A stretch of 64,000 nt of DNA. It comes from Candidatus Bathyarchaeia archaeon. Its GTDB lineage: Archaea > Thermoproteota > Bathyarchaeia > Bathyarchaeales > Bathycorpusculaceae. The notes beneath the pieces were generated by a model, which was not told where the DNA came from, made no database searches, and saw only the letters and a program-made list of their open reading frames with translations. The translations under genes and the position numbers were made by a program. The stretch covers positions 64,001 through 128,000 of the forward strand of contig JBBFKZ010000003.1 of NCBI GenBank assembly GCA_037481775.1, read 5' to 3'. Below, one piece after another: positions 9,092 to 42,032 of this stretch (position 1 is the stretch's first letter; each line of letters begins with the position of its first letter).

Positions 9092-9283
9092 ATGCCTGGA
9101 GCAAACTACAAAAGCATATCCATCAACGACGAACTCATCGAACGAACCAGACAACTCATCAAAAAACTGGGAACATACCACAGCCTGTCAGAATTCATCT
9201 CAGAAGCCGTACGCCTCCGCATAGAAACCCTTGAAAAACAGCCAGAAGCCAAAGGAGAAACAAACCATGATCTTGTCCGCTGA
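9092..9283 (+). CDS. Small RHH (CopG-like) regulator
   Basis: YKSISINDELIER...YHSLSEFISEAVR; divergent paralogue of 8528-8941. Confidence 0.75.
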   Translation: MPGANYKSISINDELIERTRQLIKKLGTYHSLSEFISEAVRLRIETLEKQPEAKGETNHDLVR

Positions 9284-9446
9284 AGAACTCCAAAAAATAG
9301 TCAAACTCCTAAAAGAACTGAACGAAACGTCAGAAACCGCCATAAAAGAGCTTGTAGACCGCAAAATCGCCGAAGCCATAGACCAGCACCTGGAAGACTA
9401 CGAGCATAAGGAAAAACCCGCAACAGAAGAGGCGTACCTGCCATGA
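9267..9446 (+). CDS. Small hypothetical protein of the element
   Basis: ATG 9267 with upstream GGAG; overlaps both neighbours in the operon. Confidence 0.55.
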   Translation: MILSAEELQKIVKLLKELNETSETAIKELVDRKIAEAIDQHLEDYEHKEKPATEEAYLP

Positions 9447-9772
9447 CAGAGAAAGAAGACACAGCCGCAATAGCCCTCCTCGAGTTTCTAAACGCAGTTG
9501 AAGCAGGCGTCGCCAGCGCACGACAAATCATAAAAACCGCGAAAATAGGCTGGGACCCGGCGCAGATTAAATGGGCACAGGCTGAAGGCACAAGCGGACC
9601 ATACGAACGCAGCGAAGACACAGACAACCCGGAATTCAAAGCCATGCTTAAAGACCTGCAGGCGCACAACGGATGCCTAACCCGCGAAGGATGGTTCTAC
9701 TGGGCCTTCCAAAACGGCGCCACAGTCGGACGCAAAAAACGAAGCCAAACCCCCTCAGCCAAAACCCAATAG
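9443..9772 (+). CDS. Hypothetical protein of the element
   Basis: ATGA overlap with the previous ORF; 109 aa with the element's codon usage. Confidence 0.7.
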   Translation: MTEKEDTAAIALLEFLNAVEAGVASARQIIKTAKIGWDPAQIKWAQAEGTSGPYERSEDTDNPEFKAMLKDLQAHNGCLTREGWFYWAFQNGATVGRKKRSQTPSAKTQ

Positions 9773-9802
9773 CGCAAACGCTTAGTCAGCGAGCCGTCAG
9801 CA

Positions 9803-11575
9803 ATGAGCCTCTTCAACCTTGCAGAGCTAAAGAATCAAGGCGGCTTCAAAGCCGGAGACCCGCTCGCCGTAGACCCACACATATACAGCAAATTCCTCAG
9901 GCACCTGAGCCGAACAGTCCGCCGAGACGTCACCGCGAAAAACATGGTTTTCCTAACCGCGCTAAGCGCCTACACGCCTGAACCCATAAACCTGTTCCTG
10001 CGCGGCGAAAGCAGCATAGGCAAAAGCTACAACGTAGTCCAAGCGCTCAAGTACTTCCCGAAAGACGACGTGTGGCTCCTCGGCGGCTTAAGCCCAACCG
10101 CGCTCATCCACCAGCACGGCTTACTCGTGGACAAAAACGGCAACCTGATACTGCCCTCGCAGAAGCCGGACAAAGACGCGCCAGCCGAAGAGAAAGAAGC
10201 ATGGACACAGCGAATGCACGACGCACGCTACCTCGTCGAGCTGAACAACAGAATCATCGTCTTCCTCGAAGCACCACACTTTGAAACCTTCAACATGCTT
10301 AGACCCATATTAAGCCACGACGCCCACCAAATCAGCTACCGCTTCACCGACAAGTCAGGCAAGGGACAACTGCAGACGCAGCACGTAGTCATCCAAGGCT
10401 GGCCCGCAACAATATTCTGCAGCACACAGGAAAAATACGTGCAAGACCTCGCCACAAGAGGCTTCACCGTAACACCTGAAATGAACAGGAAAAAATACGC
10501 TGCCGCCAACATGCTAACCGCCAGGAAAGCCGCATACCCCTGGAGCTTCAAATCCGACTTCGACCACATGCTCCTCGCAGGCTACATAAGCTCGCTGAAA
10601 ACATCGCTGGAAAACCTCGCCGCAGTAGACCCATACGCCGTCAAATTCGCCCAGGTCTTCCCAAGCCTGTCACCGCGGTCCATGCGCGACTTCAAACACT
10701 TAACAAACCTCGTCAAAGTCTCCGCGCTCTTCCACTACGCCCAGCGCCCACTCGTCATAAGAACCGTCAAGCCAGAACCAGACGCGGCTGCTGAAGCAAA
10801 ACAGGAACGCTACATCATGGTGACACGCCGAGACTACGACTTCATAATGGCTTTGTGGAGCAACATTCAGGAAACCACAGAAACCTCCGCGCCAGGACAC
10901 ATCATAAGGTTTTACCACGAAGCCGTAGAGGAAACAGCCAAAGAAAAAGAGGAATTCACCGTCGAAGACCTGACGGAGAAATGGAACAGCCGCGCAGAAG
11001 AAAAGAAATCAAGCGACGCCATAAGACGCTGGACCGCTTTTCTCTGCAGCATAGGCTACTTGACAAGCACGCCAGACCCGAACGACAAGCGACGCCAACT
11101 CTACAGAACCATCCGCACAAGCGAAAAACCCCGCAACTGCACGAATCCGCAGTTTTCGTCTATTTTCACGCTTGAAACGCTTAACGCTTGGCTTGAAGAA
11201 GCAACAAAAATATTTGCACACAACAGCCTTTCACTCAGAGAAAACATAATCAGCGAACGCGAAGTCACCGTGGAAGAACTGTACGCTAAACACTTTCTAA
11301 GCGAAACAAACCCATGTGCAAATACCGCTTTACGCACAACAACCGCTTCTTCAACCGAAAACACTTCAAGAATAGACGAAAACGGCAAAATCAACAAATT
11401 GCGGAATTTTAAGGCGGTCTACTGGAGCGACGGCTTCTACGGCTGGCATCCATGCGCCGCCTGCGGCTACACCAAGCTGACAAGTTGGCAAGCTGAAACC
11501 TTCAAGAACGAAACCGCCTGGCTTTGCGAAGACTGCAAAGAAGCATGGATGCAACAGCAGGCAGGAGACGCTTAA
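9803..11575 (+). CDS. AAA+ ATPase / MCM-like replication helicase with wHTH and C-terminal Zn finger
   Basis: Walker A LRGESSIGKS, putative Arg finger LATRGF, RSMRD, wHTH-like segment, CAAC...CEDC; directly upstream of the integrase. Confidence 0.7.
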   Translation: MSLFNLAELKNQGGFKAGDPLAVDPHIYSKFLRHLSRTVRRDVTAKNMVFLTALSAYTPEPINLFLRGESSIGKSYNVVQALKYFPKDDVWLLGGLSPTALIHQHGLLVDKNGNLILPSQKPDKDAPAEEKEAWTQRMHDARYLVELNNRIIVFLEAPHFETFNMLRPILSHDAHQISYRFTDKSGKGQLQTQHVVIQGWPATIFCSTQEKYVQDLATRGFTVTPEMNRKKYAAANMLTARKAAYPWSFKSDFDHMLLAGYISSLKTSLENLAAVDPYAVKFAQVFPSLSPRSMRDFKHLTNLVKVSALFHYAQRPLVIRTVKPEPDAAAEAKQERYIMVTRRDYDFIMALWSNIQETTETSAPGHIIRFYHEAVEETAKEKEEFTVEDLTEKWNSRAEEKKSSDAIRRWTAFLCSIGYLTSTPDPNDKRRQLYRTIRTSEKPRNCTNPQFSSIFTLETLNAWLEEATKIFAHNSLSLRENIISEREVTVEELYAKHFLSETNPCANTALRTTTASSTENTSRIDENGKINKLRNFKAVYWSDGFYGWHPCAACGYTKLTSWQAETFKNETAWLCEDCKEAWMQQQAGDA

Positions 11576-11579
11576 CCCT

Positions 11580-12767
11580 GTGGCTTCCAGCGATCAACCG
11601 CTGGCATGCCCGCAATGCGGCGGCACCAGACTTTACAGAGACGGCTTACGCTACTTATCCAATGGAGCAGCAGCACAACGTTGGCTATGCAGAAACTGCG
11701 GCTACCGCTTCAGCGAAAGAAAAGCATTACAAAAAAATTTGAGGCAGTCAATAAATACCCGCTTCGCCATACTTTCTAGCTGCCAAGGGAGCTGTGAAGC
11801 GTCAAGCGGAGCACCCTCCGTCACAAAGGCGGCGAAAACCTTGGCCACAGTAGAAAACTCGATTAAAAGCGGGCTGGCGGGAGCCACAAAGCAGACAGCC
11901 GACGTCAAGGGAAAAATCGTGGAATACAGCTTCTGGCTGCTGAAACAAGGATACTCCAAATGCACCATTCAAGGACGAACCAAACTCCTAAAGCGCTTAG
12001 CCAAGCTCGGAGACCTTCTTAATCCAGAGTCGATAAAAGAAGTCATAGCAAAGCAAGAGTGGAGCACAGGCAGAAAAATCAACGCCGTCGACGCCTACAC
12101 AAGCTTCCTCCAAATGCAAAACGCAAGGTGGGATCCACCGCAGTACAGGCGAATTCGGAGACTGCCGTTTATCCCAACAGAAAACGAAGTCGACCAACTA
12201 ATAGGCGGATGCAACAAGCGAATGGCAGCCTTCCTACAACTGCTTAAGGAAACTGGCATACGCTGCGGCGAAGCCTGCAAACTAAAATGGACCGACATCG
12301 ACATGGAAAACCCATCAATAAACGTGACGCCTGAAAAAGGCAGCAACCCAAGGCTGCTTAAAATCTCCGCCAAACTGGCAAGCATGCTCAACGCACTGCC
12401 AAAAAACTCCCAAACCATCTTTCCGCCAAACGCTGACATAATGCGCAAAAGCTTCCAAAGACAACGCAGACAAATCGCCTTCAAACTTCAAAACCCACGA
12501 CTCATCCAAATCAGCTTCCACACACTTCGCCACTGGAAAGCCACAATGGAATACCACAAGACCAAAGACATTCTACACGTCATGCAGCTTCTCGACCACA
12601 GAAACATCAACAACACGCTGGTCTACACGCAGCTCGTCAACTTCAGAGAAGACGACTACATCGCGCGGGTAGCCCACTCTGAACAGGAAGTCTGCCAGCT
12701 AATTGAGGCAGGCTTCGAGTACGTCTGCGACTATAATGGTAACAAAATCTTCCGTAAACGCAAGTAG
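11580..12767 (+). CDS. Tyrosine integrase with N-terminal Zn ribbon
   Basis: ETGIRCGE (R), EKG (K), HTLRH, LDH, VY catalytic Tyr; N-terminal CPQC...CRNC. Confidence 0.93.
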   Translation: MASSDQPLACPQCGGTRLYRDGLRYLSNGAAAQRWLCRNCGYRFSERKALQKNLRQSINTRFAILSSCQGSCEASSGAPSVTKAAKTLATVENSIKSGLAGATKQTADVKGKIVEYSFWLLKQGYSKCTIQGRTKLLKRLAKLGDLLNPESIKEVIAKQEWSTGRKINAVDAYTSFLQMQNARWDPPQYRRIRRLPFIPTENEVDQLIGGCNKRMAAFLQLLKETGIRCGEACKLKWTDIDMENPSINVTPEKGSNPRLLKISAKLASMLNALPKNSQTIFPPNADIMRKSFQRQRRQIAFKLQNPRLIQISFHTLRHWKATMEYHKTKDILHVMQLLDHRNINNTLVYTQLVNFREDDYIARVAHSEQEVCQLIEAGFEYVCDYNGNKIFRKRK

Positions 12768-12810
12768 AACCCCTAAAAAGTATTTTTTAGCGGGCGGGGT
12801 TCAGCGTAAA

Positions 12811-30649: not shown

Positions 30650-30808
30650 GCGATAACGCGGCAGTGCAAAATTAAGCGAGAAATGGTTTTCGCGTGGAGC
30701 AGCGCTGTGGCGTGCTGACTGCAGTTTTCCATTAGAAACATGCATTAGCCTTGGAAGGTTTTATATAAGGCAACCGTCCGAGCAATGGAGAAAAGGAGTT
30801 GGAGCAAA

Positions 30809-30922
30809 ATGGTTAGTGCATCAATGTTGGTTTTGCTTGGTGCAGGTTCATCTTCGCTGCTTGTAGCATTTATTGAGTACGCTTATCAGCGTAGAAAGAG
30901 AAAGCAGGCTGGGCTGGCTTAG
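30809..30922 (+). CDS. Small single-TM peptide (37 aa)
   Basis: MVSASMLVLLGAGSSSLLVAFIEYAYQRRKRKQAGLA: hydrophobic helix plus basic tail; TATA-like TTTTATATA about 45 bp upstream and GGAG. Confidence 0.45.
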   Translation: MVSASMLVLLGAGSSSLLVAFIEYAYQRRKRKQAGLA

Positions 30923-30930
30923 GCAAGCTT

Positions 30931-32372
30931 TCAGGCTGGCGGTTTTCTCCAGAATAGGTAGATTTTGGTTTGGGCTGTGAAGCTTAGGCGCTTAAGCGTT
31001 AGCGCTAGGTCGTCTATGCTCATGGTGGAGATTTTCGCTAGGAATTCTTCGTGCTTTGGGTAGACGCTTTTTAGTTTGGCTAGGCGTCTGCGTATGGTGG
31101 CGTCGCGTTGGGATAGCGTTTCAAGCACTGTAAGAATCTTGTTACAGCCTATTTGGTTGATTTTTTGTTTGCAGTATTCGGTGTTGGTGAGCAGCGGAGT
31201 GTCGAAGCCGAGTTTTTGCAGTTGTGTTAGCGCGTTTGTTATGTGAGGGCGGGGTTTGCTTTCGGCTATGCGTTGCATGCCGGCTTTTTCGAAGAATGGG
31301 TTGTAGCGTGCCATTACGGCGACTGTTTCTACGCAGGGTGTTCCTGCTTGTGTGAGGGTTTCGGCGACGAGTTTGGCGCCTAGGCCTATGCTGCGGTATT
31401 TTGGGTGTATTATTACTCGGCTGATGGTGCTGATTTCCCGTTGTAACTGTGTGAGTGTGCCTTTCCATGCTTTGCTGCGTCCGAAGCATGTTGGCGGCGG
31501 GTAGCTGTAGACGATTACGCCGATTGTTTCGTTTTTTCGTTTGAGAAGATTTTTAGGTGTGGTGGCAGGTGTGCGGTGCGGTAGTGGAATTGGCTGAGTG
31601 CTTTGTAGTCGTCTATTGTGCCCTGTGTGATGCGTGTTTGTCTTGTTAGGCTGCAGCTTTGGGCTTTTGCGTGTGGGTTGTAGCTTATGTGGATTTCTTT
31701 TCCGTAGCGTTTATGGATGTGTACGTTTGGTGCTAAGTCAGTTTTGATGTCGATGTGTGTGGTTGCTGCGATTACAGCTTTGCCGAGTGTGCGTGCGAGT
31801 TTTTGGAGGTTGTAGGCGATGATTTTGGCGGTGTCGCGGTCCAGTGTGCTGGTGAATTCGTCTATTATCCACCATTGTGCTGGTGTTTCTGCGAGGCGTG
31901 CGATTTGGTAGCGGTGTTTTTGGCCGTCGCTAAGTTGCGTGTATGTGCGGAGGAAGAGGAAGGCGTCGTTTAGGCCGACTTTGCTGAGGAGTTCTAGGGC
32001 TTCTTGTGTGTTTGCACCTATGGTGTCGATTATGGGTGTGTTTTTGTCGAATTGGAGGTCGCGTGTGTCCTGTGCTGCTGTGCCGAGGTCGGTTTTGATG
32101 GCTTGGAGTAGGGCGCTTTTGCCGCTGCCGCTGTCGCCTGTGATGAGGACGATGTCGGTTGGGCGTATGCGTATGCGGGTGTTGTCGTATATTGTGAAGT
32201 GCTGTGTGTTGTCGGCGCCGAGTCCGAAGGCTTCTGCGACGGCGCATGTGCGTTGTGTTTGTGTGGCGGGTGCGGTTTCGTAGGTGATGGTGTAGGTGAA
32301 TGTGTTGGTTTTGCGGTTGTAGGTTCGTTTGAGTGCTTGGATGCGGAAGTGCTCTGGTTTGCGCCGTGTCAT
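30931..32372 (-). pseudogene. ABC-type ATPase-GNAT acetyltransferase fusion, frameshifted near 31545
   Basis: GDSGSGKS, LSDGQK, IIDEF, then HYR. The alternate frame continues LKRKNETIGVIVYSYPPP...ISRVIIHPKYRSIGLG (GNAT motif A) into ORF 30931-31314. Confidence 0.8.
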
Positions 32373-33804
32373 CTGGTTGTGCCTTCTGTTTTGTGGCGGT
32401 TTAGTCTTTGTCGTAGCTTGTTGAGGCTTGTTTTGCCCTTGCTTGTTTTGGAGATTACCCAAAGTTGCGGTTGTGGCGGGGTGCGTGCGGCGTAGACGGC
32501 GAGTGCGAGAGCCCAGAAGCGGTCGTCGTGTGTGCCTGGTGGGTGTGAGAGTAGGATTTTGCCGTCTTTGGTGAGCGTGTAGCGTTCAGTGTTTAGTTCG
32601 GCGATTAGGTTGCTGTCGTATGGTATGCGTAGGCGTTTTTCGGTCATTGTTTGCCGGAGCCATTGGGCCATTTCCTGTTTTGTTTGTTGGGTGAATTTTG
32701 CGGCTTCTGTGTTTGTTAGGCCTGTGTTGGTCATGTCTTCAGTTATGTAGTCGCCTACGCCGCTGCTGTCGGTGAGGATTTTGTGGATTTTTTGCCATCG
32801 GTCGTTTATGGTTTTGACGTAGCCGATGACGCTTGCGTATGGTGTGTTTAGTGGGAAGCGATGCATGTGTGTTAGTTTTAGTGTGTTGTTTTCTGTTTTT
32901 ATTATGGCGAGGACGCTGTGGTCTTGGTGTTTGCCGAGGTCTAGTCCGGCGTAGAAGTCGCCTGTTTGTGTTTCTTCGAATTGGGCGTACTCCAGTGTGG
33001 AGTCGATGCATTGGGTGATTAGTGCTTGGGGGAGCCAGACGTTTTCGTTTTCTGCCCATTGGGCTTCCATTTCGCGTTGCCAGCGGGCGGGGTCGCCTTC
33101 GAGTTGGCGTTTTATGCGGGTGAGTATTTGCGGTTTTAGTGGTCCGGCGGGTTCTAGTGCTTGTTGCCATGTTACGTGTGTTTTGGCGTAGTCGGCGTAT
33201 GTGGGGTCGTGGAAGATTTTGTAGAAAATATGCTGTTTGTGTGCCATGGTGTGCTGGTGCAGATGAATTTGCCGTTTGTTGTGCCGAGCGTGAAGAGCAT
33301 GGCGTCGTAGAGTTCTTCGCCGTTTGGGATGAAGTTGAATTCGTCGGCGTAGACGATGTGGAGTTTGGGTCCGCGTATGGTTTCGGGGTTGTTTGGGTAT
33401 GCTTCGATGGTGCTGCCGTTGTTGAGTGCGACGGTGGTTTTCTGTGGTTTTTTGTAGGCGTTTCGTGGGAGCTTGGTGAGGAAGCTGTTGATGTGTTTGA
33501 TGATGAGTTTGGTTTGTCTCCAGCTTGGTCCGACTATGCCGATGTTTACGTTTGGGTTTGTAAGCGCGTAGTGGAGGAGTAGGGCGCTTATGATGTGGCT
33601 TTTTCCTGTTTGTCTTGCCCAGCGGGCGGCTATGAATTGGCTGTTTTGGAATTGGCGTATGAGTTCGGCTTGGTAGGTGGTGGGTGTGAAGCCGAGGGTT
33701 TCGGTGCAGAACTGAAGTGGGTCTGCGGGGACGGCGAATTTTTTCATTTGGGCGGTTTTCTGTTTGAGCTGCCGGAGTTCTCTTTCCAGCGTTGTGAGGG
33801 TCAT
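32369..33804 (-). pseudogene. Terminase large subunit, frameshifted near 33226
   Basis: ATPase half ARQTGKS, IRG, YADE, STP; nuclease half GLDLGKHQD...HDDRFWALALA. The halves join as SIF-YKIF if 2 T are removed from ATATTTTCTAC (minus strand). Confidence 0.85.
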
Positions 33805-34130
33805 TGTTTTTCGAGTTCTCCTATGGTTTTGCGGAGTTGTTCGAGTTCGGTTTTGATTTGGGTGATGTCGTAGGTTTTGCTGATGCTGTTGATGACTTGG
33901 CTGATGTAGGCGGATAGGCGCACCCAGTTTTGGCGTTCTGCTGGTTTTTTGCCTCCTGTTTCGAGAGCTTGTTCTGTTGCTATTTCGAGGAGGCTTCGGA
34001 GTTCTTGAATGAGTTGGCTGCGAATTCGTTGGGTGTCGCCGTCGAATTTTTCGGTGAGGTCGGTTATTCTTTTCTGTAAAAAGCGTTTATGACGGGGAGA
34101 TTCTCCTCTCCCTCTATAGGTTTTCTGCAT
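33801..34130 (-). CDS. Helical hypothetical protein (terminase small-subunit position)
   Basis: ATG 34130 (MQKTY...); 4-nt overlap with terL; coiled-coil C-terminus. Confidence 0.6.
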   Translation of the reverse strand: MQKTYRGRGESPRHKRFLQKRITDLTEKFDGDTQRIRSQLIQELRSLLEIATEQALETGGKKPAERQNWVRLSAYISQVINSISKTYDITQIKTELEQLRKTIGELEKQ

Positions 34131-34168
34131 AGATTGGCTATTAGGCTCCAAATATGTTCGCCTCCGGG

Positions 34169-34420
34169 CTATGTTTTCTGCGCGATTAGTATGCCTGTGA
34201 TTGTGCCTGCCAAGCCTGTGATGGCCGCGAAGACTTCGCTGTTCCATGCGCCTAAGAGCGCGAGGTGCGCGATTTCTATGGCTGTTAGGCTGAAGGTTAG
34301 GGCGATGGCGAATTTTACGCTGAGCACTAGGCGCTCGCTGGGCTCCGCTTCCGCTGCTGCTTGCGTGGCTGTCTTGTCGGTGGTTTTCCGCGTCAAAGCC
34401 CGCTTAATCCAGTCAGTCAT
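34169..34420 (-). CDS. Small two-TM membrane protein
   Basis: Two hydrophobic segments; overlaps the upstream ORF. Confidence 0.65.
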   Translation of the reverse strand: MTDWIKRALTRKTTDKTATQAAAEAEPSERLVLSVKFAIALTFSLTAIEIAHLALLGAWNSEVFAAITGLAGTITGILIAQKT

Positions 34421-34814
34421 GGTTTCTCACCCTCTGCTGCCGCAGGCAGCGGCCTAAGCTGGGCTTTTTGTTTTTGGCTTTCTCGTTGATTAGGAAGCTG
34501 TTCAGCAGCTGCTTCGCCTCCTCGGCTGCAACATGCGCCTTGGCTAAGACGGTGACGCCTGTGGCCCACGGCACCGGCACCGCCGTGTAGTCAATGTCAT
34601 ATAAGCCATCGCTGTAGCGAAAGCAATTCTGCGCTAATATTATGTGCTTGCGCTTCTGCCCCAGCACGCCGACGAAGACGCCCCAGCTCTTGACGGGCAC
34701 GTCTATGCCGCTGACGCCATTGCTTAAGCTCTTGCCGATGCTGGCGTCATGCCACTCTAACATGACAAGGTCGCCAGCGCTTAAGCCCTTAATCTGGTTG
34801 AGGACTTCCTTCAT
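34413..34814 (-). CDS. Hypothetical beta-rich protein, first gene of the terminase operon
   Basis: GDLVMLEWHDAS...SWGVFVG; minus-strand TATA (TTTATAT) about 35 bp upstream. Confidence 0.7.
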   Translation of the reverse strand: MKEVLNQIKGLSAGDLVMLEWHDASIGKSLSNGVSGIDVPVKSWGVFVGVLGQKRKHIILAQNCFRYSDGLYDIDYTAVPVPWATGVTVLAKAHVAAEEAKQLLNSFLINEKAKNKKPSLGRCLRQQRVRNHD

Positions 34815-34865
34815 GTGTTATTATCAAAAGAAAACGCGATCAATCGCAAATATAAAGACTCGCTA

Positions 34866-34885
34866 AATTTACCAATTGGTAAATT
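34866..34885. promoter_or_regulatory. Perfect 20-bp palindrome, putative protein-binding site
   Basis: AATTTACCAATTGGTAAATT, just upstream of the TATA box of the terminase operon. Confidence 0.55.
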
Positions 34886-35034
34886 CACACATTTACAAAA
34901 GGCAAATGAGTAGTTTGAGCAAAATCAGCATCTCTATGTAGCAAATATGAGATTTGAAATTTGAATAAAATAAAGTTTAAACGAAATACCAAAGTATATA
35001 TTGCTATTTGATGAAATTAATAAATTGACAGAAC

Positions 35035-35385
35035 ATGACGTTATTTGAAGTGATGGCTGCCTTATCCGCAACATTTGCCTTAGGTATTCCGACATTTATG
35101 GAAAAAGTCATGCGTCCCAAATACGAAGAACGCTTTTCGGAGTTCAGAGAGGCGAGAAGAGATTCATTCATAGATGAATTTGAAAAAGCATTACCTCAAT
35201 TGAAACAGGCCAAACAAGAACTAACCCCTGAGATAATAGAGACGATGGAATCATTGTTTAATGAATGGGAAGAAGTTAAGTCGGATGAAAACAAACTTAC
35301 GGTTTTACTCAATTGTAGAAAGTTTTTCTTTATCTTTTGGTTAGTGTCTTGTGCCACGTCATTATTTGCGATTCAATATTCGAAC
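35035..35385 (+). pseudogene. AT-rich membrane protein gene, apparently truncated by a junction near 35385
   Basis: Protein-like through FAIQYSN; the rest of ORF 35035-35553 is the antisense of a convergent gene fragment with different composition. Confidence 0.45.
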
Positions 35386-35547
35386 CGCAGCGGACGCGTC
35401 AACATACGTCTCATCAGGACCAGAAACCACACTCAAAACCAAACGCATCTTATCTTTCAATTCGGAATGCAGAAAAACAAGGTGCTCCCACCGCTCTTCA
35501 TTCAGAGTCACCTCAGTGTCATCGAAAACCACAACCAGCATCAGCAA
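35362..35547 (-). pseudogene. Truncated RelE/PBECR-like toxin fragment
   Basis: VTLNEERWEHLVFLHSEL...VVSGPD matches the N-terminal pattern of these nucleases; the C-terminal half is absent. Confidence 0.45.
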
Positions 35548-35753
35548 CCTTAAACATTAGACCCCTCAATCAACCTATAAAACTAACTCAAAATATGCCT
35601 GACACCTCTTCAAAACTCCCCCAAGCCACACACCCAATAACTTTTCACCGATGCCAACAGCGATGACGCCTAGACCAATCCAGCCATTCCCGCAGCTTCG
35701 CCAAAAACTTATATCCCCTCTGTGCTCATACCAATGGCTAAGGAAATGAGAAA

Positions 35754-36074
35754 ATGAAAGGAGCCATAGTTTTTCTAGCAGTCTTCGCCATAGCAGTCAT
35801 AATAACCATTGGAAACACGGCAATACCCCCGGGAAAAGCAATCTACGACGCCCTCTTACCAAACACTGAAGCAGCCTCAGGCTACCTCGTCGGCGGCCAA
35901 GTAGACGCTATAACACTGATAATCGCAGTTTTTAACGGCGTAATATACGGCTTCATCGCCTGGCTAATATTCACCATAATAAACGCAGTATTCAAAAAAG
36001 ACAAAAAACAAACCGTCCAGCAAGTAGTAAACGTCAACATCAGCGACAAAGACAAAAATGCCACCGTAAAATAG
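35754..36074 (+). CDS. Membrane protein
   Basis: Two hydrophobic helices; TATA-like CTTATAT upstream. Confidence 0.75.
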   Translation: MKGAIVFLAVFAIAVIITIGNTAIPPGKAIYDALLPNTEAASGYLVGGQVDAITLIIAVFNGVIYGFIAWLIFTIINAVFKKDKKQTVQQVVNVNISDKDKNATVK

Positions 36075-36278
36075 CGCACACCACACACAAAACGCATACA
36101 AAATACCTATGCTCTACATTTTTTCACTTAAACCCTTAACAAGCTACACGCCAACAGCACCCTACACAAGCAAAAGCAGTTTTCACTCATCAAACCTCCA
36201 GCACAAGACCCGTTAAAACTTGAAAACGGGAATGTTTTTATGGCTTCACGCAACTAACAAGCATGGTGAAAACAAAAA

Positions 36279-36509
36279 ATGAACACACCACTTGAAAAGA
36301 AAGTACAAGCAGCCCTCGCCGAAATAAAACCGCAAATCCAAGCAGACGGCGGAGACATCGACCTCGTCGCCGTGGAAAACGACACCGTAAAAGTCCGCCT
36401 ACGAGGCGCATGCGCAGGCTGCCCCATGTCTATGCTAACGCTCAAACAAGGCGTGGAACGCATAATCAAACAGAAAGTTCCCGAAATAAAACGCGTCGAA
36501 GCAGTCTAA
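36279..36509 (+). CDS. NifU/Nfu C-terminal domain protein
   Basis: IQADGGDIDLV, GACAGCPMS. Confidence 0.93.
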   Translation: MNTPLEKKVQAALAEIKPQIQADGGDIDLVAVENDTVKVRLRGACAGCPMSMLTLKQGVERIIKQKVPEIKRVEAV

Positions 36510-36580
36510 CCGCCAAACAGCCCTGCCAAACAGAACCAAGTTTTCTCCTTTTAACGGCGTCCGAAGCCGAAGGCATCAAG

Positions 36581-37243
36581 CTAAGGCTTAGCCTTCCGCC
36601 TTTTCCGCTTAGACCGCAAACGCTTCTCCCAGCAGGAAGGACAATAAACAGGCTTACCACCCCCAAACTGAAAAGGCACAGCACACGAGCCGCCGCATAC
36701 ACTACACACTGCACCGCTAGCCCCGCCCTGCTGGAACTGCCGGAAAAGCCTGTAGCGCTTCAGCCGCGGCAACGCCGTCTTCGCATACCGCAGCATCCTA
36801 GGATTAGCCTTCAACCACCCGAGCATGTGAAAGAAGCTCTTCGCCCGCTTCTCCTCGCGGTCAGCAAGCGGCTCATAACCCAAATTCCGCAGCTCGTCCA
36901 AATAGGCGATTTCCACAAGCCGCTGCGCCTCGCCCGCAACCCGCACCCGCTTAACCCGCGCCTCACCGTAAACCCGCTGCAGCTCAGCCGCCGCCACATC
37001 AAAAACATAACCCTGACACACATGAATCTCCTCGTCAAACCCAGGCCTCAAAGCAGCCACAAGCCGCAACGTTAAACGCGCAGCCTCCTGCAAATAGGCT
37101 TTCGCAGCAAAAAGCGCCGGGTCCTGATAAAACCTGACGTCAACCAAGTCGTATTTGAACTCGCCAGTTTCCTCGCGGTAAACGCCCACAACCACGCCGA
37201 AAAGCAAGTCGCCGCTACCCGCGTCATCCACAACAAGCGTCAT
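36581..37243 (-). CDS. RNase H-like fold protein with C-terminal CxxC-x17-CxxC Zn ribbon
   Basis: VDDAGSG start resembles the RNase HII DEAGRG motif; CSVCG...VPF....KPVYCPSC. Confidence 0.65.
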   Translation of the reverse strand: MTLVVDDAGSGDLLFGVVVGVYREETGEFKYDLVDVRFYQDPALFAAKAYLQEAARLTLRLVAALRPGFDEEIHVCQGYVFDVAAAELQRVYGEARVKRVRVAGEAQRLVEIAYLDELRNLGYEPLADREEKRAKSFFHMLGWLKANPRMLRYAKTALPRLKRYRLFRQFQQGGASGAVCSVCGGSCAVPFQFGGGKPVYCPSCWEKRLRSKRKRRKAKP

Positions 37244-37331
37244 AGAAACTGCTAAGCCTCTTTCCCCAAGCATAACCCAAACACGTATAAAAACAGTATT
37301 CTAAAAACCCAGAGAAAACCGCGCAACGCAA

Positions 37332-39161
37332 CTAAGGCCGCCGCAGCCGCCTTCGCCTAACATAAACCGCACCCGCGAAAGCCACAGCCAAAACAATGGC
37401 CACATCAAAATAAGGCGCTAACAACTCACCGTAATCAGCCGCCTCCACGTAGCCTCCAGCGCCTTCGGCGCCCTGAAGCAGCTGCCCAGAGCCGTTAAGC
37501 GGTTCAATCTTTAGGTTCTTGAATGCCACAGCCCTCTCCGTGTTATTCGCTATAAGCATCACCAGCCCTCCGGCATCTGCCACTTCCCGCGGCGCCTCCA
37601 AAGTCTCCAGAAACGTCCCATTCGCATCTTGCAACTGCGCAGTCACCTCATCCTCAGTTATCTTCGCAGCCACCCTATACCACACGCCTTCTTCTATACG
37701 CTCCGACATATTCATGAAAGCAACTTCGCTGAGCGCACTTACCTGATTGATATCATGATAGTCTAAGCCCTTAACATTCACCGTGTAATTGCCGACGCCG
37801 CTGTTCTGCAAGATAAGCGCAAACTGACTATGCATCGTCTCCGCCAAGTCCTCAGGCAACCTCAACGGCTGAAAACCCTGCGGTATCTCAATTTCCTCAA
37901 GAACCTCCAGCGCCTCTTCTTCCGCAGAAACCGTAATCAGCCGCCCGCTTCTCAGCACAATAAACTCGCCAGTAAGCAGGACGCCGGCGCCGGACAGCTG
38001 AGCATCAAGGAAATCTTCAACTCCCTGCCATAAGCTGAGCTCGTAATGGGCAACGTAAGTGCGGCCGTAAGTGTAATAGTAGCCGACGCTCTCGAACTGA
38101 ACAAGCGACGCGGGAAACCCGATGAAAACCGTCAGCGCTTCGCTGTCTGCGCCTGCAACCTCCGCGTTGCCACCCCAGCTTGCCCGCACATAATAGGTGC
38201 CTGACGAAGTGACATTCCAGCTGAAAGAGTAGCAGCCGCAAGAATCCGTCTCCGTTCGGTACGCATCATACGCGATGCCATTATGGCTGACATACAGCAC
38301 GACGGTTTCGTTTTCCCGTGCAGGCGTAAGCACGCCGGAAACTATCAGCTGCCGCTTCTCAAGGCTTACCTCTGCTGCAGCAGAGAGAGTAATTGTTAGA
38401 GACGCCGAAGGCAACGGGCTGCCCCAGCCTGCCGCGATTTGCGCTGGCAATGCAGGCTCGCTGTTTTCAAGCGTAATAATCCACGGTTGCTCCTCCGCCA
38501 AAACAGGCGGCACATCACCTACTTTCCACTCCATTGCAGCGGTACACTCGGCTATCCAGTATTTCCTGCCGCTCGACTCGTAGCCGGTGGCAGGCAGCCA
38601 CCACCATGTGCCGCGCGGCGTGCAGGGCAAGTAGACGCCAACGTTAATGTGATGCGCCTCTTTGAAGTAGAGCAGGACAACGTCTAAGCCGCCGGCCTTC
38701 ATGATTGACGCGGCGAGAAGCGACAGCGTATCACATTTCCCAGCGTTCTCCACTAGCGTCTCAACTGGATACTTGACGTCGCCGCTGGCGTAGGGAATCT
38801 GGTGAACCAGCATCAGCACGGCGTTAGCGAAATCTTCGTCACTGCGCTCGCCGTTGTCGGTGATGCTGCGGAGGCGCTCTGCAACCTGCTTAAACGCGTC
38901 AGGCGTAACAAGCGCAGCGTAGTCGCTGTCCCGAGTAATCCGTGGAGTTTTGGCATCGTAATACTCATAAAGCGAGGATGGCACGGCAACATACAGTTTC
39001 TGGCTGACGAGACCGAATTGAAAATGGAAACTGAAAGTTCGCTCGTAATTGCCAGCAAAAGAGGCAGGAGTAAAAAACACCAGCAACAGAAGGGCAACAA
39101 GCAAAATGCCGAGGTTTCGATGCCGAAAACGCATGTGTTCTCTATGATAATATATTGTCAC
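37332..39161 (-). CDS. Surface transglutaminase-like protein with Ig-like domain and C-terminal anchor
   Basis: Signal peptide, KYPVETL..GKCDT, HINVG, AECT triad pattern, C-terminal TM plus RRRR. Confidence 0.75.
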   Translation of the reverse strand: MTIYYHREHMRFRHRNLGILLVALLLLVFFTPASFAGNYERTFSFHFQFGLVSQKLYVAVPSSLYEYYDAKTPRITRDSDYAALVTPDAFKQVAERLRSITDNGERSDEDFANAVLMLVHQIPYASGDVKYPVETLVENAGKCDTLSLLAASIMKAGGLDVVLLYFKEAHHINVGVYLPCTPRGTWWWLPATGYESSGRKYWIAECTAAMEWKVGDVPPVLAEEQPWIITLENSEPALPAQIAAGWGSPLPSASLTITLSAAAEVSLEKRQLIVSGVLTPARENETVVLYVSHNGIAYDAYRTETDSCGCYSFSWNVTSSGTYYVRASWGGNAEVAGADSEALTVFIGFPASLVQFESVGYYYTYGRTYVAHYELSLWQGVEDFLDAQLSGAGVLLTGEFIVLRSGRLITVSAEEEALEVLEEIEIPQGFQPLRLPEDLAETMHSQFALILQNSGVGNYTVNVKGLDYHDINQVSALSEVAFMNMSERIEEGVWYRVAAKITEDEVTAQLQDANGTFLETLEAPREVADAGGLVMLIANNTERAVAFKNLKIEPLNGSGQLLQGAEGAGGYVEAADYGELLAPYFDVAIVLAVAFAGAVYVRRRRLRRP

Positions 39162-39286
39162 ATCTAAGACTTAAACGTTAGTTAGGGCGCGTCCATATTT
39201 GAAAGATAAAGCTTGAATTCTTATCGAAGCACAGTGCCCGCCGATTTCACTGTCCACTGAAAACGCCAAAAAAAGAGGCGGAGAGG

Positions 39287-40186
39287 TTAGAGCAGCAGGT
39301 CATTGGCGAATGAGTCACTTAATACTGGCGTCTGGTATTTGCAGTTAGCCTTCGCATAGTCAAAAGCTTCCTCGACAGTAACATCCGCCTGTCCAGAAAT
39401 GTGGTCGATTACGTCGGCATATTCATGGAGCATCCCTTGATCCGCGAAGTAGTATGTGAACTGGCCGTTTTGGACGCTTTCAAACTCGTAGGATAGGCTG
39501 GACTCAGCACAAGCCATAACCACGATTCGACCCGCAGCGGCAAGATCTGTCATCCCCCCAGCATAGCATGAGTCGAAAATGAAAATTATCCGTGAAGCCG
39601 CAACCTCAGAAAACAGGGCTGCAAGCTGCCCATCCCAGATCAGCGATTCAGCTGTGCACTCATAAGGAACTATGGCTTCATCAATAGCTTCCTTATCGCC
39701 GTCGTTGGCTTTGCCTCTTGCGCCGTGACCGCTATAGAAGAAGATAACTTCATCACCAGCGCTTACCCTTCCTTTTAACGACTTGATAGCTTCCACTATA
39801 TTGTCGCGAGTTGCAGCGTCATTAGTGAGTAGTATAATATTAGTCTCTGAATACCCGTAAACTGTGATTAGAGCAGTCTTCATGTCCGAGGCATCGTCGT
39901 CCGCATATTCCAGATCGTTCGCGTTGCCAGCATAGTCGGAAATGCCTATAACGATAGCCCATTTACTTGCTCCCTGACCGAGCTCATCGCCTAGTGTGCC
40001 TGTTGCAGCTTGCCTCGGCGGTTTCGCGGGCTTGCCCATGGCCGCTGGCCCCTTAACGGTGATTTTCGGCGTTATCTCAACATCTGATGCATGCGGTGAA
40101 GCAGCGTAAGCCATCACCGGCAAGAGCAGGCTTAACAACAAAATAGCTATTGCTCCAAACAAAATTGCCCGTTTCATAATAACCAT
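39287..40186 (-). CDS. Secreted caspase-family (C14) peptidase
   Basis: AIVIGISDY, FYSGHG, FDSCYAG; N-terminal signal peptide. Confidence 0.9.
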   Translation of the reverse strand: MVIMKRAILFGAIAILLLSLLLPVMAYAASPHASDVEITPKITVKGPAAMGKPAKPPRQAATGTLGDELGQGASKWAIVIGISDYAGNANDLEYADDDASDMKTALITVYGYSETNIILLTNDAATRDNIVEAIKSLKGRVSAGDEVIFFYSGHGARGKANDGDKEAIDEAIVPYECTAESLIWDGQLAALFSEVAASRIIFIFDSCYAGGMTDLAAAGRIVVMACAESSLSYEFESVQNGQFTYYFADQGMLHEYADVIDHISGQADVTVEEAFDYAKANCKYQTPVLSDSFANDLLL

Positions 40187-40337
40187 CCAAATTTAATTTA
40201 AGCATTAGAATTGCTTAAAAGACTTGTTCCCGCTCTGAAAACAGGCAGCGCTTCTGGCTGTAAGAGATTTTTCGCAACCTTTCCCACATTTATCTCGGTA
40301 CCAAAGTGTATTCTTGCCATGAAAAGAGCGCGTTGTT

Positions 40338-40505
40338 CTAGGTGTGCTGGCGCCAAGTGTCTAGTTTCAGCCGTTTAATGAGGGCTTTGACTTTTTCCTT
40401 GTCTGCTAGAGCTTCCTCGATGACGGCTTTTGCAAGCTCGTATATGCGCAGGTCATTCAGCAGAGCCAGCTGCTTAATTCGCTGATGCAAGTCAGCGGTT
40501 ATGGA
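40338..40505 (-). pseudogene. RHH-like regulator remnant lacking a start
   Basis: Hand translation SITADLHQRIKQLALLNDLRIYELAKAVIEEAL..., preceded in frame by TAA. Confidence 0.45.
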
Positions 40506-40721
40506 TTATGCGAAAGAGTTAAGTTTGATGAAGGAAAGTATACATCGTGGCAAAAATCAGAGCTTAAATTTCTAGTGTACACTTATTTTTTTCATTATCT
40601 GGTTCCGATTCGGTGTCTACAAATAAAGCCAAATTTAAATTAACTTTAAATGTATAAGCGCTATATTATATGCACAAGCCCTCAGATCAAGGCGGCTACA
40701 AGAAAGTGAGGTGCGCAAAGA

Positions 40722-41069: not shown

Positions 41070-41152
41070 GCCAATTAATGCAAATTCATATCGAAAGTTC
41101 ATAAAGGCTTTATCAATGCTTTAATCCTTTAGCTAACTTAAGTGAAGGAAGT

Positions 41153-41973: not shown

Positions 41974-41989
41974 ACACTACTATTAGTGT
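41974..41989. promoter_or_regulatory. Putative NrdR box
   Basis: ACACTA-CTAT-TAGTGT palindrome resembling the NrdR consensus, about 45 bp upstream of nrdR. Confidence 0.55.
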
Positions 41990-42032
41990 GGGTTGTTTGC
42001 TACTATCCACTATCAGCCATGTGTGATCATCT

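Follow-up and report, generated by a model that had tools for sequence, protein, structure and literature searches.

A sharp G+T to A+C switch of strand skew in a Bathyarchaeia genome is the junction of two independent skew tracts

The window, which is the whole 64,000-nucleotide stretch analysed here from contig JBBFKZ010000003.1 of a Candidatus Bathyarchaeia archaeon, carries a minus-strand terminase cassette and, beyond an AT-rich divergent intergenic region, a group of genes on both strands. Two tracts of opposite strand skew lie at this locus, and a further tract lies to the left of it. Keto skew is given throughout as (G+T-A-C)/n on the + strand, in windows of 1 kb unless stated otherwise. 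The genes are longest-ORF calls, and skewed DNA carries spurious ORFs. The features are as follows.

9100..12700: second tract of the window, + strand A+C-rich (keto skew -0.18 to -0.29), an integrated element
11580-12764, plus strand: tyrosine integrase of this element, beside a tRNA gene
12811-12885, minus strand: the tRNA gene adjoining the integrase
30800..34200: left skew tract, + strand G+T-rich (keto skew +0.36 to +0.52 per 200-bp window)
30931..31314, minus strand: C-terminal fragment of an ATPase-acetyltransferase gene, by-eye alignment to the C-terminus of the intact gene in relative G013
31515..32462, minus strand: stretch of that gene encoding an ABC/SMC-type P-loop ATPase (Pfam ABC_tran, 1.4e-11), third positions 90% A/C
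32369..33247, minus strand: nuclease (RNaseH-like) half of a terminase large subunit (phrog_5909, 2.3e-17; Terminase_6C, 1.2e-3, below the Pfam cut-off)
33172..33804, minus strand: ATPase half of the terminase large subunit (Terminase_6N, 5.5e-14; phrog_2, 2.9e-29)
33801..34247, minus strand: 148-aa protein, no family matches, at the inner end of the left tract
34110..34156, plus strand: decayed copy of a dispersed 48-bp repeat with 55 blastn matches across the genome, for which no link to tract edges was found
34413..34814, minus strand: first cassette gene, 133 aa, unknown family, unskewed (k3 -0.16)
34815..35034: AT-rich divergent intergenic region (GC 0.29-0.37)
35035..35400, plus strand: unskewed gene
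35400..38200: right skew tract, + strand A+C-rich (-0.16 to -0.47 as far as 37.4 kb), sharp left edge
35754..36074, plus strand: small membrane protein, weak DUF996 match, third positions 86% A/C
36279..36509, plus strand: NifU-like protein (Pfam NifU, 3.4e-29), third positions 84% A/C
36581..37273, minus strand: zinc-finger protein (zf_Tbcl_2, 1.7e-9), convergent with the two plus-strand genes
37332..39161, minus strand: 609-aa surface-type protein, of which the 3' part alone, to about 38.2 kb, lies inside the right tract

The left tract is coextensive with the cassette, which is a decaying mobile or accessory element broken in this strain. Its ATPase-acetyltransferase gene, intact at 490-534 aa in G013, is here in pieces, and the ATPase part also matches phrog_293 (7.5e-36) and phrog_11143 (1e-32); PADLOC, applied to the G013 orthologue, returned P-loop-level matches only. 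The terminase gene is frameshifted, since its ATPase half overlaps the nuclease half in another frame. Runs X3, X4 and X7 lack 2 bases at 33225 relative to the window, which by frame arithmetic would rejoin the terminase into one frame, and in run X3 GTGT is inserted after 31544. A single 11,238-base contig of run X3, from a different study, spans 30929-42164 with 110 differences and 8 gaps; the arrangement is therefore not an assembly artefact, and it is independently present in other metagenomes. The first cassette gene is likewise unskewed in G013 (k3 -0.08). On the other side of the intergenic region, the frame beginning at 35035 stays open as far as 35553 because it runs into A+C-rich DNA without stop codons.

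The first-pass annotation had placed a palindrome and a terminase nuclease gene close to the switch. A perfect 20-bp palindrome is indeed present at 34866-34885, with one copy in the genome, but it stands in the unskewed divergent promoter region, where it is probably an operator, and the nuclease gene is broken. A search for inverted repeats with arms of at least 12 gave one weak 15-nt inverted repeat only.

The sharp flip from G+T to A+C is real. The + strand is 70-73% G+T across 30.8-34.2 kb, about neutral at 34.4-35.4 kb and 60-73% A+C across 35.4-37.4 kb, fading out by 38.2 kb; hand counts of 45/60 G+T at 32041 and of 45/60 A+C at 36061 and at 36961 proved exact. The 1-kb keto skews are +0.40, +0.46 and +0.43 over 31-34 kb, +0.07 at 34-35 kb, -0.16, -0.30 and -0.26 over 35-38 kb, and -0.05 at 38-39 kb. 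Against the 3,562 1-kb windows of the 1.82-Mb assembly (mean -0.001, SD 0.080; 0.1-99.9 percentiles -0.317 to +0.416), the left tract reaches the genome maximum, 0.458 or 5.7 SD. The 200-bp profile rises from -0.01 through +0.26 to +0.36 at the onset of the left tract at 30.8 kb, holds a plateau of +0.39 to +0.52 until 34.0 kb and reaches zero by 34.6 kb; it then drops abruptly from +0.03 to -0.37 at 35.4 kb and weakens between 37.4 and 38.2 kb. Hence the left tract is gradual on its promoter side and sharp at its 3' end, and the right tract is the reverse. Mean |GC skew| and |TA skew|, measured in the GRINS style, are 0.36 and 0.49 in the left tract and 0.30 and 0.30 in the right tract, and G+C is 0.50-0.56 in the tracts vs 0.42-0.47 in the flanks.

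At third codon positions, two-letter use reaches 84-91% in genes of both strands. The minus-strand genes within 30931-33804 have 87-91% A/C at sense third positions, with 82% in 30931-31314 and 76% in 33801-34247, and the translations of the left-side genes are visibly rich in Thr, His, Gln and Asn, as had been noticed. In the right tract, the minus-strand gene at 36581-37273 is 77% G/T at sense third positions, so that the + strand there is A/C-rich regardless of gene direction.

Substitutions were read on the + strand from congener consensus to the genome under study (G000), so these matrices are unpolarised. In the left tract, 82 C>T changes (of 514 C) stand against 24 G>A (of 967 G); in the right tract, 56 G>A (of 305 G) against 29 C>T (of 470 C). 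Keto-lowering changes outnumber keto-raising ones by 86 to 32 at 37346-38200, and the two flank controls are symmetric (304 vs 327 and 168 vs 156). The + strand G>A excess at third positions of the right tract is found in the plus-strand genes (8 vs 4) as well as in the minus-strand gene (12 vs 2). By this comparison the tract changes are strand-asymmetric and mainly transitions, with C>T leading and A>G weaker on the G+T-rich strand and with symmetric flanks, in agreement with the earlier expectation. The left tract also holds more C>G than G>C (16 vs 5 at all sites, 9 vs 2 at third positions), which selection for G/T letters would predict too.

The housekeeping gene cysS, inside another tract, has k3 of -0.58 in G000, -0.04 to -0.09 in three congeners and -0.38 to +0.25 in 21 other relatives, so the bias is evolutionarily labile. 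Its third positions differ by 53 G>A vs 0 A>G, 25 T>C vs 9 C>T, and K/M transversions of 6 vs 4; polarised with outgroups, these changes split about evenly between the two branches. At the locus itself, polarised singletons in G001, G002, G004 and G005 run toward skew loss (left tract 57 vs 17, right tract 39 vs 21).

Comparison across genomes separates the two arms. Congener G005 lacks window positions 31290-35676, most of the cassette, yet retains the right tract (orthologues with keto skew -0.13 to -0.34), and G007, from another genus, keeps it at -0.14 to -0.41 with one bin at -0.06, its cassette copies sitting on other contigs. The right tract is chromosomal; it is conserved in G001, G002, G005 and G007 and syntenic across the genus and G007. 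The first-pass annotation had listed the same bias in orthologues at other loci as evidence against its own reading, and for the left arm this is what was found: 7 of the 13 cassette loci in relatives have sense k3 of -0.45 or lower, 3 in congeners (G002 and G001 at the same locus) and 4 in other genera. The terminase half in G013 (k3 -0.84) has flanking genes unlike those of the window and thus occupies a different locus, as checked in that genome. Within the G013 ATPase gene, the skew flips from -0.6 to +0.6. Moreover, a second terminase copy in the genome under study, on contig C42, is G+T-rich in sense, while that of the window is A+C-rich. No duplicated partner of the tracts was found in the genome, the best other match being 64.8% over 766 bp. 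The switch marks the place where two independent tracts meet and is not one structure.

Such tracts are common in this archaeon and its relatives. A hidden Markov model (HMM) delimited 201 of them, covering 151.6 kb of 1,821 kb (8.3% of the genome) and including the housekeeping genes cysS, lplA, DNA ligase and EF-1alpha; in relatives, silent-site skew reaches +/-0.9. Tract-oriented keto skew in tracts of at least 1 kb is 0.46 at third positions, 0.25 in intergenic DNA and 0.12-0.15 at first and second positions. Since the skew survives in intergenic DNA and in opposite-strand genes, it is a property of the DNA strand and not a pure coding-strand effect. The earlier claim that it is independent of gene direction stands to that extent only, because the sense strand is A+C-rich for 58,127 of 82,002 coding bases (71%) in the 70 tracts of at least 800 bp. 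With this preference, divergent genes yield the observed +/- order, and abutting +/- pairs in the tract list lie, by inspection, mostly at divergently transcribed gene pairs. In 13 of the 70 tracts only G+T-rich-sense genes occur, some of them not beside A+C-sense genes, e.g., at 84.7-88.5 kb of contig C5 and on contig C42. The skew is flat over gene bodies, extends just about 50 nt upstream of starts, and persists more downstream (-0.11 for about 1 kb) than upstream (-0.03); neighbours lying downstream of, and convergent with, strongly skewed genes average a sense k3 of +0.11 vs -0.057 for all genes. Genes for ribosomal proteins show no skew (k3 -0.07 to +0.09) although their transcription is presumably high, so transcription level alone cannot drive the skew.

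We suggest, with about even confidence, that the locus joins two independent GRINS-like single-copy tracts, each the footprint of strand-specific substitution, delimited by transcription units and linked in cause to transcription. On the strand turning G+T-rich, C>T, more weakly A>G and some C>G would exceed their complements, piling up at silent and intergenic sites and altering amino-acid composition. Transcription units would roughly set the tract limits, and the G+T-rich strand would be the template strand of the resident genes in most tracts, so that two units transcribed apart give + then -. The right tract starts abruptly near 35.4 kb, in front of the plus-strand pair encoding the membrane protein and NifU, and continues over the convergent minus-strand genes. 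The cause may lie in damage or repair that transcription makes unequal between the strands; the template strand might be exposed repeatedly, e.g., in head-on encounters with replication forks, or undergo error-prone resynthesis. Tracts with G+T-rich sense only, the in-gene flip in G013, the reversed edges of the left tract, the unskewed ribosomal-protein genes, the drift of congener singletons toward skew loss, and a sign opposite to that of transcription-associated asymmetry in E. coli and mammals count against such a cause.

The first-pass annotation had instead proposed a recurrent break with resection, or a zone of fork convergence. In this model a double-strand break at 34.5-35.4 kb, which the terminase nuclease might make at the palindrome, or forks converging there, would leave exposed strands on both sides (3'-ended strands or lagging-strand templates) to deaminate at C and A. 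The + then - polarity is that expected from resection of a central break or from converging forks and is opposite, as had been stated for a classic origin, to the origin-like flip beside orc1/cdc6 on contig C1; most of the substitution asymmetry consists of C>T changes on the G+T-rich strand, a unique palindrome lies at the centre, and the right arm weakens with distance. We nevertheless regard this proposal as highly improbable, because the right arm is kept without an adjacent cassette in G005 and G007, and cassettes of other genera, including the one at a different locus in G013, show a skew just as strong. With 201 tracts of this kind in the genome and abutting pairs mostly at divergent genes, no special site need be invoked. 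Moreover, 1.2 kb around the proposed site is unskewed, although resection damage should peak beside the break; the left arm stops abruptly at the cassette stop codon without fading, the terminase gene is frameshifted in this strain, and contig-scale skew does not change at 34.5-35.4 kb. It is distinctly unlikely that selection favours two-letter strands, either because transcripts and single strands made of A/C or of G/U alone can neither fold nor self-pair or because palindromic restriction sites are lost. Some G013 genes do have 90-98% two-letter third positions with first and second positions near normal, intergenic DNA of G160 contains runs of 40-140 nt composed of A/C or G/T alone, words with GGCC or GCGC are under-represented on G+T-rich strands, and the C>G excess of the left tract fits. 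However, the asymmetry in cysS is confined to transitions (78 vs 9); within this housekeeping gene, congeners have gained and lost the bias; G+T-sense genes and tracts over both strands give opposite RNA compositions; and by our own estimate 72-75% two-letter content removes just about half of palindromic 4-6-mers.

Two further accounts bear on the origin of the tracts. They might be pieces of mobile elements (viruses, plasmids or integrated elements) skewed by their own asymmetric replication and slowly losing the skew after integration. This would suit the terminase cassette, the integrase element by the tRNA gene at 9.1-12.7 kb, the higher G+C of the tracts, the decay of skew in congener lineages, the most extreme tracts of G013 lying inside a 32-kb accessory island, and the frequent overlap of GRINS with transposases, integrases and phages as described by Nivina et al. 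(2021, PMC8256042). Such an import is unlikely, since core genes of vertical descent also carry the skew, the right tract keeps its syntenic position throughout the genus and in G007, and polarity alternates with gene direction in one island, which a single replication mode does not predict; G000 cysS differs from its congeners at 150 of about 1,420 sites, mostly directionally, so the bias arose in place. Alternatively, a GRINS-type process unrelated to transcription, in which an error-prone polymerase or recombination and gene conversion resynthesises one strand in patches of about 1-4 kb, would let the repair event fix the polarity, as in the tautomer-mispairing idea of Nivina et al. The phenotype reported there matches, with correlated GC and TA skews peaking at third positions, abrupt sign changes, mobile-gene links and the same amino-acid shifts (Gly/Val/Cys/Trp vs Pro/Thr/His/Gln) (PMC8256042); some tracts disregard gene direction, one flips within a gene, and the terminase exists in both flavours in one genome. 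But the 71% orientation preference, the tracking of gene starts by tract edges and the lack of a duplicated partner make this process unlikely.

Among known systems, replication strand asymmetry, with its G+T-rich leading strand and flips at origin and terminus, shares the two correlated skews and the presumed chemistry, and an ordinary origin-like flip occurs beside orc1/cdc6 on C1. Unlike it, the tracts are of kilobase scale, alternate in polarity over a few kilobases, with no orc1/cdc6 gene on the window's contig, and are 6-10x stronger (0.3-0.46 vs about 0.05 per 10 kb). Strand displacement in vertebrate mtDNA leaves a similar footprint, with C>T and A>G on one strand whichever way the genes run and a peak at silent sites, but as one replicon-wide gradient, weaker in whole-strand skew (about -0.25 in human mtDNA), where here many short tracts have either polarity. 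Transcription-associated mutational asymmetry resembles the tracts in its transcription-unit limits and its tie to the sense or template strand; its sign is opposite, the sense strand being G+T-rich in E. coli and mammals and mostly A+C-rich here. According to Chen et al. (2016, PMC4844684), U and C are preferred at fourfold sites across 1,550 prokaryotes through nucleotide-cost selection, whereas the tracts use A and C; their amplitude is far above either bias and varies gene by gene. The closest known kind is GRINS, which, as described by Nivina et al. (2021, PMC8256042), resemble the tracts in several respects: their GC and TA skews are intense and agree in sign (G+T vs C+A), third codon positions are the most skewed, Gly/Val/Cys/Trp or Pro/Thr/His/Gln are enriched, the sign switches abruptly within 1 kb, and overlap with integrases, phages and transposases is frequent. 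GRINS are by definition duplicated, with >80% identity to a paralogous region that the tracts here lack, although the authors also mention skewed regions in single copy; their description covers bacteria as well as amoeba and choanoflagellate PKS genes, and the word "archaea" was not found in the main text (PMC8256042). The tracts reported here are, by comparison, single-copy and archaeal, 1-4 kb long, covering whole transcription units together with intergenic DNA, and arranged as a genome-wide mosaic.

Keto skew, calculated as (G+T-A-C)/n on the plus strand, reverses within the window between a G+T-rich left tract (30.8-34.2 kb) and an A+C-rich right tract (35.4-38.2 kb). In 1-kb windows it reaches +0.40, +0.46 and +0.43 from 31 to 34 kb, drops to +0.07 at 34-35 kb, stands at -0.16, -0.30 and -0.26 from 35 to 38 kb and is back to -0.05 at 38-39 kb. 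On recount, the 60-nt hand counts with which the first-pass annotation had described the flip, three in number, proved exact. The window is contig C3, positions 64001-128000, of the studied genome, G000. Across its 1.82-Mb assembly (54 contigs; 3,562 windows of 1 kb), the mean is -0.001 with an SD of 0.080, and the left tract holds the genome-wide maximum, 0.458. At 200-bp resolution, the left tract sets in at 30.8 kb within about 400 bp, keeps a plateau of +0.39 to +0.52 until 34.0 kb and reaches 0 by 34.6 kb, while the right tract starts abruptly at 35.4 kb (from +0.03 to -0.37) and fades out between 37.4 and 38.2 kb. Run X3, which belongs to a different study, has an 11,238-base contig that spans 30929-42164 with 110 differences and eight gaps, so the arrangement is not an assembly artefact.

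The features at the locus, together with an integrated element that carries a second tract in the window, are as follows.

9.1-12.7 kb (element to 12885), integrated element with the second tract, its tyrosine integrase adjoining a tRNA gene
30931-31314, minus strand, fragment, by eye the C-terminus of an intact 490-534-aa ATPase-GNAT gene of the relative G013
31515-32462, minus strand, ABC/SMC-type ATPase
32369-33247, minus strand, terminase large subunit, nuclease half
33172-33804, minus strand, terminase large subunit, ATPase half, its frame overlapping the nuclease half
left tract, minus strand, 148-aa protein
left tract, minus strand, small membrane protein listed with the cassette
34413-34814, minus strand, unskewed 133-aa gene
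between the cassette and the plus-strand gene, AT-rich divergent intergenic region with a palindrome
from 35035, plus strand, unskewed gene to the right of the palindrome region
35754-36074, plus strand, small membrane protein in the right tract
36279-36509, plus strand, NifU-like protein (3.4e-29) in the right tract
36581-37273, minus strand, convergent zinc-finger protein in the right tract
minus strand, 609-aa surface-type protein, only its 3' part within the right tract

Third codon positions supply the bulk of the signal in both tracts. In the minus-strand genes of 30931-33804, 82-91% of third positions are A or C in sense. The plus-strand genes at 35754-36074 and 36279-36509 have 86% and 84% A/C at these positions, and the minus-strand gene at 36581-37273 has 77% G/T in sense; right-tract genes of both directions thus give an A/C-rich plus strand, irrespective of gene direction. 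The intergenic stretch at 36.0-36.2 kb has a keto skew of -0.47.

The cassette, as we call the minus-strand terminase and ATPase-acetyltransferase genes that fill the left tract, is decaying in this strain, judging from its split terminase frames, the gene fragment and the differences between sequencing runs. Two bases at 33225 are absent from runs X3, X4 and X7, a strain polymorphism, and by frame arithmetic rather than translation their absence probably restores a single terminase frame; in run X3, GTGT is also inserted after 31544, close to where the ATPase-acetyltransferase gene is broken. Among the ten ORFs of 30.9-39.2 kb, searched against Pfam and PHROGs, only the terminase (in two pieces) and the ATPase matched virus families, and none was a portal, major capsid protein or protease, so the locus does not qualify as a tailed-virus (Caudoviricetes-type) provirus. 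A known defence system was rejected as well, as PADLOC yielded P-loop-level matches only. The divergent promoter region contains a perfect 20-bp palindrome at 34866-34885, which is unique in the genome even with three mismatches allowed and is probably the operator of a dimeric regulator. The integrated element (9100-12885) encodes a Phage_integrase protein (5.3e-22) and a 590-aa protein of no known family, and its plus strand is A+C-rich throughout. Two tRNAs are the only Rfam matches in the window.

The first-pass annotation had proposed a recurrent break with resection, or a fork-convergence zone, at 34.5-35.4 kb. Comparison with relatives shows that the two arms are separable tracts. The congeners G001, G002, G004 and G005 share about 79-87% nucleotide identity with G000 and 92-95% among themselves. 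Both tracts are present in synteny in G002, and the right one in G001. G005 lacks window positions 31290-35676, its cassette being reduced to the last 360 bp or so, and its right-tract orthologues still have keto skews of -0.13 to -0.34. In G007, from another genus, the right-tract orthologues range from -0.14 to -0.41 with one bin at -0.06, and cassette copies lie on other contigs. The ATPase gene occurs in 24 of the 41 genomes searched, G000 included; among 13 loci of relatives, its k3 (the same skew at third codon positions of the sense strand) is -0.45 or lower in seven and about neutral in five. The strongly skewed loci belong to three congeners, with G002 and G001 at the same locus as G000, and to G008, G014, G017 and G031 of other genera. 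For the left arm, the bias is found in a cassette orthologue at another locus, an outcome that the first-pass annotation had itself named as counting against its proposal: in G013 the cassette is skewed among different neighbours, with a k3 of -0.84 in its terminase half, and there the skew flips from -0.6 to +0.6 within the ATPase gene, at about 371.4 kb.

A break from which both arms arise together, with the damage greatest next to it, does not agree with arms that are separate in G005 and G007 and with a central 1.2 kb that is unskewed. Nor does fork convergence agree with contig C3, along which opposite skew over tens of kilobases is absent: in 10-kb bins keto skew stays within +/-0.06, except in the tract-bearing bins (-0.107, +0.133, -0.090, and +0.087 at 40-50 kb), and is about 0 again on both sides of them. 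The orc1/cdc6 genes lie on C1 and C10 and none on C3; an origin-like flip from minus to plus, about -0.05 to +0.045 per 10 kb, adjoins the C1 gene (C1:104915-105187) in the region C1:100000-105200. A break would predict C>T (and C>G) on the strand ending 3' at it, and the asymmetry has this sign in both arms, but in an unpolarised comparison and with the same signature in tracts elsewhere. The local break explanation of the flip does not hold, and a break or fork convergence at this site is in our view highly improbable.

The counts of differences from the congeners are listed below, followed by those for cysS, a housekeeping gene inside another tract.

Differences read from congener consensus to G000 on the plus strand; the matrices are unpolarised and single-gene counts are small
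Left tract: C>T 82 (of 514 C) vs G>A 24 (of 967 G)
Left tract: A>G 24 (of 371 A) vs T>C 34 (of 935 T); C>G 16 vs G>C 5
Right tract, 35676-37307: G>A 56 (of 305 G) vs C>T 29 (of 470 C)
Right tract, 35676-37307: T>C 22 (of 261 T) vs A>G 17 (of 429 A)
37346-38200: 86 away from G+T vs 32 towards G+T
Flank controls, one direction vs the other: 304 vs 327 (26.0-30.8 kb); 168 vs 156 (40.5-43.7 kb)

The excess of third-position G>A on the plus strand is seen in plus-strand genes (8 vs 4) as well as in the minus-strand gene (12 vs 2), and the skew is shown to be an asymmetry at the level of the DNA strand, made up mainly of transitions and not present in the flanks. Singletons in each congener, once polarised with the remaining three genomes, favour loss of skew in the left (57 vs 17) and the right tract (39 vs 21). 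For cysS, G000 has a k3 of -0.58, whereas three congeners lie between -0.04 and -0.09 and 21 other relatives between -0.38 and +0.25; its third-position differences comprise 53 G>A with no A>G, 25 T>C against 9 C>T, and K/M transversions at 6 vs 4. Polarised by outgroups, its first and second positions show 19 changes to A/C against 3 the other way on the branch leading to G000, and on the stem of the congeners 11 to G/T against 2, while at third positions, where this polarisation is ambiguous, 46 changes fall on the G000 branch and 42 on the congener stem. The skew is therefore evolutionarily labile, and the cysS and tract counts indicate a bias that arises and disappears in place over genus-level time, mostly through transitions.

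Such tracts are found throughout the genome and in the lineage at large. In 100-bp bins, a three-state HMM with parameters of our choice delimited 201 tracts covering 151.6 kb, or 8.3% of G000; genes were longest-ORF calls, which include spurious ORFs in skewed DNA. Besides cysS with the opposite-strand lplA, genes for DNA ligase, PurB and EF-1alpha lie inside tracts. In tracts of at least 1 kb (77 kb), tract-oriented keto skew is 0.46 at third, 0.15 at first and 0.12 at second positions, and 0.25 outside ORFs of at least 100 aa. In G013, the SD of 1-kb keto skew over the first 400 kb is 0.146, and a 32-kb accessory island (G013:C1:347000-379000) with pilin-like proteins, PIN toxins and the terminase cassette alternates + - + - + - tracts with k3 from -0.90 to +0.97. 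Runs of 30 letters of G/T were found in 120 of the 301 genomes from the class, in 42 of the 48 from the family and in 79 of 251 sampled from the phylum, a crude proxy that was not used as a tract measure because many runs in genome G160 are short intergenic tracts and some others are simple repeats. G160 itself has 5,942 overlapping 30-letter matches genome-wide and non-repetitive G/T-only or A/C-only runs of 40-104 bases between genes (C3:1995-2242, 19349-19403 and 34989-35125; C6:14094-14288), the adjacent runs of the last spanning about 195 bases with one short break. A 2.6-kb tract of G000 outside the window (C3:134401-137000; -0.19) has no ORF of at least 100 aa and may be an RNA operon or array. 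On the 3.2-kb contig C42, a second terminase large-subunit gene is G+T-rich in sense (k3 +0.53), the opposite flavour to the window copy, and is followed by a convergent glycosyltransferase gene that is likewise G+T-rich in sense.

The skew is statistically tied to transcription units. Across 70 tracts of at least 800 bp, the sense strand is A+C-rich for 58,127 of 82,002 coding bases (71%); 39 tracts hold A+C-sense genes only, 13 the opposite kind only, and 17 are mixed. By inspection of the block list, abutting tract pairs are nearly all plus then minus, and in the examples compared with the ORF list the two genes are divergent and A+C-rich in sense. Along a gene the skew is flat, and ahead of the start it extends for only about 50 nt; it persists more downstream (-0.11, about 1 kb) than upstream (about -0.03). 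As well, convergent downstream neighbours of strongly skewed genes have a mean sense k3 of +0.11, vs -0.057 for all 1,682 ORF-genes. Ribosomal-protein genes carry no skew, and translational selection or expression level was rejected as the cause on this ground.

Several other candidates were rejected. A dispersed 48-bp repeat (55 blastn matches across G000; a copy at 13210-13255 on the minus strand and a degenerate one at 34110-34156 on the plus strand) is neither tract boundary nor promoter, as it is not enriched at tract edges (3 observed vs 2.06 expected, P 0.33) and the first 250 bp downstream of the copies average only +0.15. The repeat is non-coding (frames of median about 22 aa, with TTG for ATG in roughly half of the copies), has no Rfam match, and shows a semi-conserved 12-nt extension upstream and a short terminal hairpin whose stem, by eye, appears to have paired changes between copies; a small RNA and a MITE-like element are possibilities. 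A search for Chi- or KOPS-like strand-specific motifs on the G+T-rich strands returned nothing but one CRISPR-like repeat. Several overlapping 8-mers with 34-40 occurrences each on these strands resemble the repeat unit of a CRISPR-type array that was included in the tract set. Reverse transcription with a deaminated first-strand cDNA was rejected for want of any RVT_1 match in the 96.7%-complete G000, and missing deamination repair because UDG, endonuclease V and NucS are all present.

A mutational origin of the tracts is likely: the substitutions counted favour a process that is strand-asymmetric and mostly of transitions over selection on codons. Selection for two-letter strands, which could account for the near two-letter third positions, is for the same reason quite unlikely. 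A bias imported with mobile elements would suit the cassette and the integrated element, and has to be set beside the housekeeping genes within tracts and the changes in place in cysS; we regard it as improbable. A repair process of the type proposed for GRINS, the intense skew regions of Nivina et al., acting independently of transcription, would share their abrupt sign changes and is set against the tie to transcription units; it is a possible but unlikely account.

The reading we prefer is that G+T accumulates on the template strand through an asymmetry in damage or repair that is linked to transcription; exposure of that strand at head-on fork encounters and its error-prone resynthesis are candidate steps. 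The flip would then mark two divergently transcribed units, the right tract continuing over convergent genes. Against the transcription-linked reading stand the unskewed ribosomal-protein genes, the 13 tracts with G+T-sense genes only, the flip inside a single gene of G013, and the opposite sign of the asymmetry in E. coli and mammals. More broadly, and as a tentative proposal that may well prove wrong, Bathyarchaeia and by extension carriers of GRINS-like regions would possess an active local strand-specific mutator that rewrites silent sites of chosen units within congener divergence, to 90-98% two-letter use, with a polarity set by transcription or fork-transcription encounters. If this is true, tracts would be heritable records of past transcription or conflict, and the mutator a source of rapid protein recoding in accessory genes.

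Sign changes take only a few hundred bases, and tracts come and go among the species of a single genus. The encoded proteins are recoded towards either Thr/His/Gln/Asn/Pro/Lys or Val/Gly/Leu/Phe. Predictions of codon usage, horizontal transfer and origins are distorted by such DNA, which also gives rise to long spurious ORFs and can lead to wrong trees for the genes concerned. The present locus provides an archaeal form that is single-copy and evidence that a mirror flip can have independent arms, along with counts of substitutions that point to a strand-asymmetric process, and a statistical tie to transcription units.

Strand skews are normally weak, chromosome-wide marks of replication, and even the skew of mitochondrial DNA is weaker than in these kilobase tracts. 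In the literature searched on strand asymmetry in Bathyarchaeia or archaea, we found no description of such tracts, and the GRINS literature found was all on PKS or megasynthase systems. According to the main text of the GRINS paper, these regions exceed 500 bp, have mean absolute GC and TA skews above 0.15 (150-nt windows, step 30) that are correlated, and are defined by duplication, the same cluster or genome holding a paralogous region that is more than 80% identical in DNA (PMC8256042). GRINS, the one counterpart described so far, are known there from bacteria and some eukaryotic PKS genes, with the mechanism unexplained, and the word 'archaea' is absent from that main text (PMC8256042). 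The left tract (about 3.4 kb) and the right tract (about 2-2.8 kb) both exceed this length, and their mean absolute GC/TA skews, 0.36/0.49 and 0.30/0.30, exceed this intensity, vs 0.13/0.13 and 0.11/0.15 in controls. The two skews are correlated over 30.9-38.2 kb (Pearson r 0.85; controls -0.19 and -0.33; genome-wide -0.07), with r about 0 inside a single tract because both are on a plateau there. A duplicated partner of more than 80% identity is absent from G000 for 30800-38300, the best non-self match being 64.8% over 766 bp to an ATPase paralogue (C3:40350-41098) and the others matches to a 47-bp repeat. As far as the GRINS paper describes them, GRINS and the present tracts have in common GC and TA skews that correlate and peak at third positions, amino-acid shifts of the same kind, sudden changes of sign and an association with mobile genes; unlike GRINS, the tracts here are archaeal and single-copy. 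We file the feature as a new, archaeal and single-copy variant of GRINS-like intense skew regions.
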